Below, in pieces: positions 3,323 through 4,101 of a stretch of DNA of 64,000 bases. The stretch lies in IMG/VR virus record IMGVR_UViG_2718218139_000007; one strand, 5' to 3'. Within the stretch, counting starts at the first letter, position 1; each line of letters begins with the position of its first letter. The DNA is from a virus (lineage: Duplodnaviria; Heunggongvirae; Uroviricota; Caudoviricetes). The position numbers and the translations under genes are program-made. The notes below the pieces were generated by a model. The model was not told the origin of the DNA, ran no database searches, and worked only from the letters and a program-made list of their open reading frames with translations.

Positions 3323-3786
3323 TGTTTTGTTATGAAGGTGTTACTGGTAACGTTAAGGTAATTTAACAAAGAGTCAGTTCCGGACTTTATAGTGTGCTCA
3401 GTTCATGGCCAAAAACGATTTCTGTGATAAATATTTTGAATATTATTTACAGGTAAATGGAGTGGGGCGCATGGATAGAAATATTACAATAGAGTATGAA
3501 GTATATGCCCGTATTGTATGGGCAGAGAAGGCAAAAACACGGTAATTCCGTGTGTTGCCATGATACCTGATTGGCAGAATAGTTGTTTGGTTTTGAGTAT
3601 ATAGTCAGCGTTTTTTGTTCAGTAATTGCCCCCTCAAAAAATAATAAAATAAGGTGATTATTTTTGTTTATTATTTAGTTTTTTTGTGTGTTATTTTATT
3701 GTTTTTGCGTGGTTTGTTTTTTATTGTTATTTCATTAAGGGAAGGTAAATTCAGGATGGCAGTCTGTAGATAATCGGAGGTCACTT

Positions 3787-4101
3787 ATGCTACATGATCA
3801 CGTGGCAGAATGTCTGGAGAAAAAAGGACTGTACCGGAGAGCAGCTGAACGATGGGCAAAAGTGATGGTACAGCTAAGTGATGACCAGAAAAGAAAAGTG
3901 GCGGCACAGAAACGAGCAGAGTGTTTGCGTAAGGCGCGCCGGACTCCGGTTTCACCGGTGAACCTGACCGAAATAAAACAAGCGGTCAACAGACTACATT
4001 CTGAGTTGGGAATGGGATTTGAAGAGCGGCGGGTATTCCGACGATATAAAGGGACAGGAGAACAGAATACGTCCGGAAACGCGCGGTCAAAAAAATGCTA
4101 A
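3787..4101 (+). CDS. PerC-family (Pch-like) transcriptional activator candidate
   Basis: 104-aa basic protein matching in length and recalled sequence character the prophage-borne PerC homologs of EHEC; preceded by a very AT-rich 450 bp region; recalled from memory, not searched. Confidence 0.5.
   Translation: MLHDHVAECLEKKGLYRRAAERWAKVMVQLSDDQKRKVAAQKRAECLRKARRTPVSPVNLTEIKQAVNRLHSELGMGFEERRVFRRYKGTGEQNTSGNARSKKC

Follow-up and report, generated by a model that had tools for sequence, protein, structure and literature searches.

Identity of the pch gene

Between the Rz lysis gene and an oppositely oriented gene of the ylcI/ynfO family, the window (the whole 64-kb stretch of DNA that was analyzed) holds a gene for a PerC-family regulator, with a long AT-rich spacer in front of it and a hairpin behind it. 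The features of the locus are as follows.

2843..3322, + strand: Rz lysis gene (Pfam Phage_lysis, E 2e-46), last of the holin-lysozyme-Rz group and left border of the slot
3323..3786, + strand: pch upstream spacer, 464 bp with 33.6% G+C, from the Rz stop (3322) to the ATG
about 3636..3738, + strand: T-rich core of the spacer, 17% G+C, AT skew strongly negative
3776..3780, + strand: Shine-Dalgarno (SD) sequence GGAGG, a strong one, 6 nt ahead of the start codon and shared by pchA, pchB and pchC
3787..4101, + strand: pch coding sequence (CDS), pchA allele, encoding a 104-aa PerC-family regulator from an ATG start
3876..3890, + strand: candidate anti-RBS element, made up of AAGUGA and an adjoining DicF match, a putative assignment
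4138..4164, no strand assigned: hairpin of 11 bp closed by a loop of 5 nt, bordered by an A-run and, on its other side, by a T-run
4183..4407, - strand: ylcI/ynfO-family (DUF3950) gene (Pfam DUF3950, E 1e-19), right border of the slot

An earlier note on this DNA, made from the letters of the sequence, had proposed a 104-aa PerC-like open reading frame here, and the gene proved to be real. Its product matches Pfam family PF06069 (PerC) over the full length of the profile, residues 1-89 aligning to positions 1-89 of its 90 (E 3.8e-44; 149.3 bits, the curated gathering cut-off being 22.6 bits), and it also matches phrog_994 (E 1.4e-45). The G+C content of the CDS is 49%, versus 50.6% for the 64-kb window.

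Alignment to PerC and Pch proteins had been set beforehand as the test of this proposal, and the family similarity was clear. When the annotated loci of O157:H7 strain Sakai were compared, the CDS was identical to pchA (ECs_1091) at 315 of 315 nucleotides, and the two proteins were 100% identical. One nucleotide differs from Sakai pchB (nt 16, giving V6L in PchB) and three differ from Sakai pchC (nt 16, 172 and 183, giving V6L and V58M in PchC). Positions 16, 172 and 183 are the sole differences reported among the coding regions of the group-1 pch genes (PMC5931665), and because the differences that we found fall exactly on these positions, the CDS in the window is assigned to group-1 Pch. The similarity to PerC of plasmid pMAR2 from EPEC E2348/69, for which we took the gene directly after perB as the reference, extends over 87 residues (2-88) with 47% identity and 70% positives (E 1e-27).

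The identical protein is recorded on at least 1000 contigs in a public collection, under names that include 'PchABC family transcriptional regulator', and a homologue search with Pch returned just 16 cluster representatives, all of them near-identical. Pch has been described as lacking homology to known DNA-binding proteins (PMC4764244). A search of the PDB gave no relative at E up to 1, and a single-sequence AlphaFold model, which hints at four helices, was too poor for use (pLDDT 51). None of the evidence contradicts the identification of the locus as pch, and the weak points are confined to its regulatory anatomy.

The pch unit as a cargo cassette

The spacer, the gene and the terminator together form an 858-bp unit, and 672 of the 5426 complete E. 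coli genomes searched carry it, with a median of 3 copies. In all 672 genomes the spacer travels with the gene; 657 records show at least 99% identity to the unit, and its annotation is everywhere that of a PerC family regulator. The genes that precede pch encode a P21-type holin, a phage lysozyme and Rz. On the downstream side, ylcI, whose relatives are annotated YlcI/YnfO, is followed by genes for an HNH endonuclease and terminase subunits. The HNH endonuclease reading frame (4449-4979) encodes 176 aa here, versus 121 aa in O157:H7 FRIK944, and its counterpart in PV15-279 is annotated as a C-terminally incomplete pseudogene; the 3' end of this gene may be frameshifted.

A query made of the flanks only matched prophages that have the same Rz and the same ylcI and HNH genes and that lack pch. 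In the two pch-less prophages that were aligned, homology extends as far as the stop codon of Rz and is picked up again at about 4260-4290, within the 3' portion of ylcI; the DNA between these two points is unrelated filler. This break and resumption of homology argues that the pch unit is a cargo cassette. We consider it very probable that the locus is a cargo cassette ("moron") with the pchA allele of group-1 pch, situated in the late gene region of a lambdoid prophage that an attaching-and-effacing E. coli carries.

Phage lambda carries its bor gene in the same slot, right after Rz. Like pch, lambda bor and other morons are Rz-adjacent, self-contained units with their own terminator and a G+C content below that of the flanks, and cargo of the bor type is likewise variably present among otherwise homologous prophages. 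The two differ in that bor is oriented against the late operon and encodes a lipoprotein, whereas pch runs in the direction of the late genes and its product is a regulator.

In Sakai, pchA (prophage Sp4) has the same Rz upstream and the same terminator downstream as the copy in the window. However, the lysis-pchA segment of Sp4 is inverted and flanked by IS629/ISEc8, whereas the window shows a normal late order with ylcI, HNH, and an HK97-type terminase and capsid, an arrangement that resembles the pch copy of O157:H7 FRIK944 and PV15-279. The genes for PchB (ECs_2182, Sp11) and PchC (ECs_2737, Sp14) of Sakai lie in the same cassette at the same post-Rz position. PerC of EPEC (pMAR2), the founder of PF06069, shares with Pch both the family and the LEE1/ler target (PMC4764244, PMC4456613). 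Unlike Pch, PerC is an 89-aa protein that lacks the 15-residue C-terminal tail, and it is plasmid-borne rather than prophage-borne, as the third gene of the perABC operon under the control of PerA. EPEC needs PerC only under some conditions (PMC4764244).

Composition and regulatory content of the upstream spacer

The spacer presumably holds the promoter or promoters and the 5' untranslated region of pch. Its lowest 100-bp stretch starts at 3636 and has 17% G+C, a level reached just twice elsewhere in the 64-kb window (near 23.0 kb and near 29.05 kb), which puts the T-rich core within the lowest 0.03% of the window's 100-bp stretches. The whole 464-bp spacer ranks in the lowest 2% of the window by G+C. 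The earlier description of about 450 bp as being among the most AT-rich DNA of the window thus applies to the core at 3600-3740 (17% G+C), while the full length is only moderately so.

The same region had been called curved-looking, and this was not borne out: the 10-11 bp AA/TT periodicity of 3600-3760 was equalled in 151 of 2000 shuffled sequences (7.5%), and the T-tracts of the spacer are irregularly placed, 8.5-49.5 bp apart. Nor could the term leader, in the sense of a transcribed 5' untranslated region, be upheld, as a promoter scan remained at the level of chance and gave no assignable transcription start. Over 3200-4500 the scan returned 2 consensus-like sites, versus 2.8 expected by chance, and the site TTGCCA-N17-AATAGT (3555-3583, + strand) scores just 9/12 against the promoter consensus. 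No Rfam family was found in 3200-4500, even at E up to 1.

The H-NS high-affinity motif TCGATAAATT has 54 matches in the window versus 54.8 expected, and within the spacer there is a single match with 2 mismatches, which is the chance level for the window. In the open-access pch literature we found no statement on H-NS ChIP at pch promoters. The AT-richness of the spacer (17-34% G+C) is what suggests that pch itself may be silenced by H-NS. The spacer is probably also where the LrhA and Lrp/butyrate inputs would act, together with H-NS.

On the minus strand, a hairpin at 3537-3553 lies about 100 nt downstream of a promoter-like site (3670-3641), an arrangement that could mark a small antisense RNA. 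As a terminator (3553-3537, with a T-run) we regard this hairpin as a product of chance; in the pchB variant, and likewise in the pchC variant, one pair of the stem is lost and no second change restores it.

Variation of the spacer among pchA, pchB and pchC

Compared with the spacer of Sakai pchA, the spacer in the window has 5 substitutions and one 1-nt indel. The differences from pchB (30 substitutions plus indels) and from pchC (23 plus indels) are concentrated in the T-rich tract at 3635-3735, the most variable part of the cassettes. Identity to pchB in 50-bp bins falls to 31/49 (63%) and 39/50 within this tract, versus 49-50/50 in the CDS bins, while the upstream 280 bp of the spacer are at least 96% conserved among the paralogues. 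Overall, the tract diverges by 10-35%, versus a CDS that differs at 3 of 315 nucleotides.

The genes pchA, pchB and pchC have been reported to be differently regulated and expressed (PMC4456613, PMC5931665). A fast-diverging tract above a near-invariant CDS could underlie this differential regulation. We suggest, tentatively and with some doubt, that the hypervariable tract at 3635-3735 may be a tunable module that sets the paralogue-specific strength of silencing or activation of pchA, pchB and pchC. It could do so through H-NS, LrhA or Lrp acting on the DNA, or through Hfq and sRNAs acting on a U-rich 5' untranslated region.

Translation signals and probable terminator

Three papers attribute the control of pchA translation to an intramolecular pairing of the SD with an anti-SD element, which the sRNA DicF opens at low oxygen (PMC7769764, PMC7873438, PMC9438474); one of them places the anti-SD element within the pchA CDS (PMC7769764). 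We searched the locus for this element by duplex and folding analysis. In the candidate at 3876-3890, AAGUGA (3876-3881) is complementary to UCACUU (3781-3786), just after the SD, and ACCAGAA (3884-3890) is a 7-nt match to the 5' end of DicF as scored by RNAduplex, for which Sakai Sp4 supplied the DicF sequence. The score is slightly better for a second candidate, CUCCGGUU at 3944-3951, whose pairing partner is the SD itself. Against shuffled sequences the pairings were not significant (p about 0.02 for DicF and 0.12 for SD:CDS), and the fold of the mRNA around the start codon (3740-3990) had no distinctive structure (z = -0.94 versus shuffles). The analysis of the locus thus did not unambiguously recover the published anti-SD element. 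There is no copy of DicF within the 64-kb window.

The hairpin at 4138-4164 folds with -14.7 kcal/mol on the + strand and -12.3 kcal/mol on the - strand (RNAfold), and the pchA, pchB and pchC cassettes do not differ over this stretch. It is likely to terminate transcription in both directions, that of pch (+) and that of the converging ylcI (-).

The pch prophage and the rest of the window

The large terminase gene of the prophage is in two halves (5655-6218 and about 7480-8574) on either side of an IS3-family element at 6222-7479 (IS600 family in relatives), which contains orfA (6280-6582) and orfB (6618-7436). With this gene split, the prophage is probably defective and unable to package DNA. 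Defective prophages are common in EHEC.

Type III effector cargo is found at the end of the pch prophage, at 21477-31902, in a block of low G+C. It includes a nleA-like gene (21477-22799, - strand), a gene for NleH (24612-25529; NCBIfam E 2e-173), a gene for an effector of the WxxxE family (29155-29742) and reading frames of the DUF1076/NleG-like type. The effector genes lie downstream of pch on the same element, and the association of pch genes with prophages that carry effectors has been described (PMC3378721). The LEE itself is absent from the 64-kb window; the low-G+C effector block points to a LEE-positive host, and the effector cargo suggests that the LEE target is present in the source strain.

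A second lambdoid prophage follows directly (32782-64000), with its integrase at 32782-34068 (- strand), isrK and C4 antisense RNAs at 40197-40385, three tRNA genes at 47571-47818 and STnc100 at 49221-49433. No second copy of pch was found in this prophage (32782-64000). The best matches among complete RefSeq E. coli genomes were 96-98% identical over 6-20 kb (O55:H7, O157:H7, O26 and other EHEC-like strains), and none of these complete genomes gave a 100% match over long stretches. Judged by its sequence, the prophage is a mosaic of known modules.

Function of Pch and expression of the cassette

The earlier note had mentioned reports that PerC homologues on EHEC prophages activate ler, and this activation is documented for exactly the protein encoded here (PMC6265319, PMC5931665, PMC4764244). 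In K-12, any one of PchA, PchB and PchC raises the activity of a ler::lacZ fusion at least 4-fold (PMC5931665), and PMC6265319, citing Iyoda & Watanabe 2004, states that the group-1 pch genes are needed for full expression of ler and the LEE and for adherence. Activation by Pch is fully dependent on repression by H-NS/StpA/Hha/YdgT, and Pch lowers the occupancy of LEE1 by H-NS both in vivo and in a reconstituted system; together, these two results make Pch an anti-silencer (PMC4764244). Of the inputs to the gene, LrhA, Lrp with butyrate, and LeuO act on pchA, according to PMC4456613, and the PpchA-pchA segment has been reused as a butyrate sensor (PMC7279287). SOS induction raises the expression of group-1 pch, at a late stage (PMC5931665), and the pch genes are located on cryptic prophages that carry effectors (PMC3378721).

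According to this literature, Pch binds AT-rich sequences in the LEE1 promoter as well as in effector loci, and there lowers the occupancy by H-NS and StpA. At LEE1 the lowered occupancy turns on ler, and Ler in turn activates both the type III secretion system and the effectors encoded on prophages. Expression of pchA itself depends on LrhA and on Lrp with butyrate, and SD:anti-SD pairing holds back its translation until DicF opens the pairing at low oxygen. During prophage induction, late transcription antiterminated by Q should also read into pch. We infer this read-through from the co-orientation of pch with the late genes and from the lack of a + strand T-run terminator before pch, and it agrees with the late SOS induction of the group-1 genes (PMC5931665).

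Read-through might even be the main source of pch expression. The AT-rich spacer would then be the compositional signature of foreign cargo and a recombination-prone junction, not a dedicated H-NS-silenced leader, and pch would be mainly a passenger of the late operon, transcribed from pR' on induction. The orientation of pch and the gap in termination between Rz and pch speak for such a passenger, as does the rise of group-1 transcripts, late and together with other prophage genes, after treatment with an SOS-inducing antibiotic (PMC5931665). The tests for promoters, H-NS motifs and curvature all stayed at chance level, and no part of the cassette is less conserved than the T-rich core, a pattern that would be unusual for a tightly constrained operator. 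However, uninduced lysogens grown in DMEM need group-1 pch for expression of the LEE (PMC4764244, PMC6265319), and the cloned native PpchA-pchA segment works from a plasmid in a non-lysogen (PMC7279287). The action of LrhA and Lrp on pchA, as given in PMC4456613, and the conservation of the upstream 280 bp among the paralogues also argue against it, and we consider a role mainly as a late passenger unlikely.

We give far less weight to the view that the pch gene in the window is a silent or decaying paralogue that makes no regulatory contribution. It would fit the insertion in the large terminase gene and the fact that strains usually hold several copies of pch (median 3), any one of which may be redundant. 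Against this, the CDS, the SD and the terminator are intact and identical to those of the functional Sakai pchA, which works even though the part of the defective prophage that contains it is rearranged and bordered by IS elements (PMC4764244).

Least likely of all is that pch shares its unit with a second protein gene, a 46-aa reading frame at 3405-3545 that would make the unit a two-gene operon: it is undisrupted both here and in the Sakai cassettes of pchA, pchB and pchC, and it matches phrog_2157 over its full length (E 2.3e-37), but it has no Shine-Dalgarno sequence before its ATG and no Pfam match, its 9 non-synonymous versus 1 synonymous changed codons among the four cassettes give no sign of purifying selection on a protein, and a tblastn search of 50,697 phage records returned one identical fragment only, so that phrog_2157 most likely groups copies of the same cassette and is not independent evidence. 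We reject this frame as coding and regard it as probably a repeatedly annotated non-gene.

Significance of the locus

The reading that we prefer is that of a group-1 pch cargo cassette in the late region of a lambdoid prophage. There is nothing out of the ordinary in this copy of pchA or in the AT-rich region that normally precedes the gene, and as such the locus is already known; papers from 2004 onward have covered the gene, its family, its location on prophages, its target and several regulatory inputs. The locus holds one copy of the LEE master activator, and it matters as annotation only, in that it marks an effector-carrying lambdoid prophage of attaching-and-effacing E. coli. If the T-rich tract did prove to be a tunable module, prophage recombination within it, more than the copy number of pch, would diversify LEE expression among EHEC lineages.
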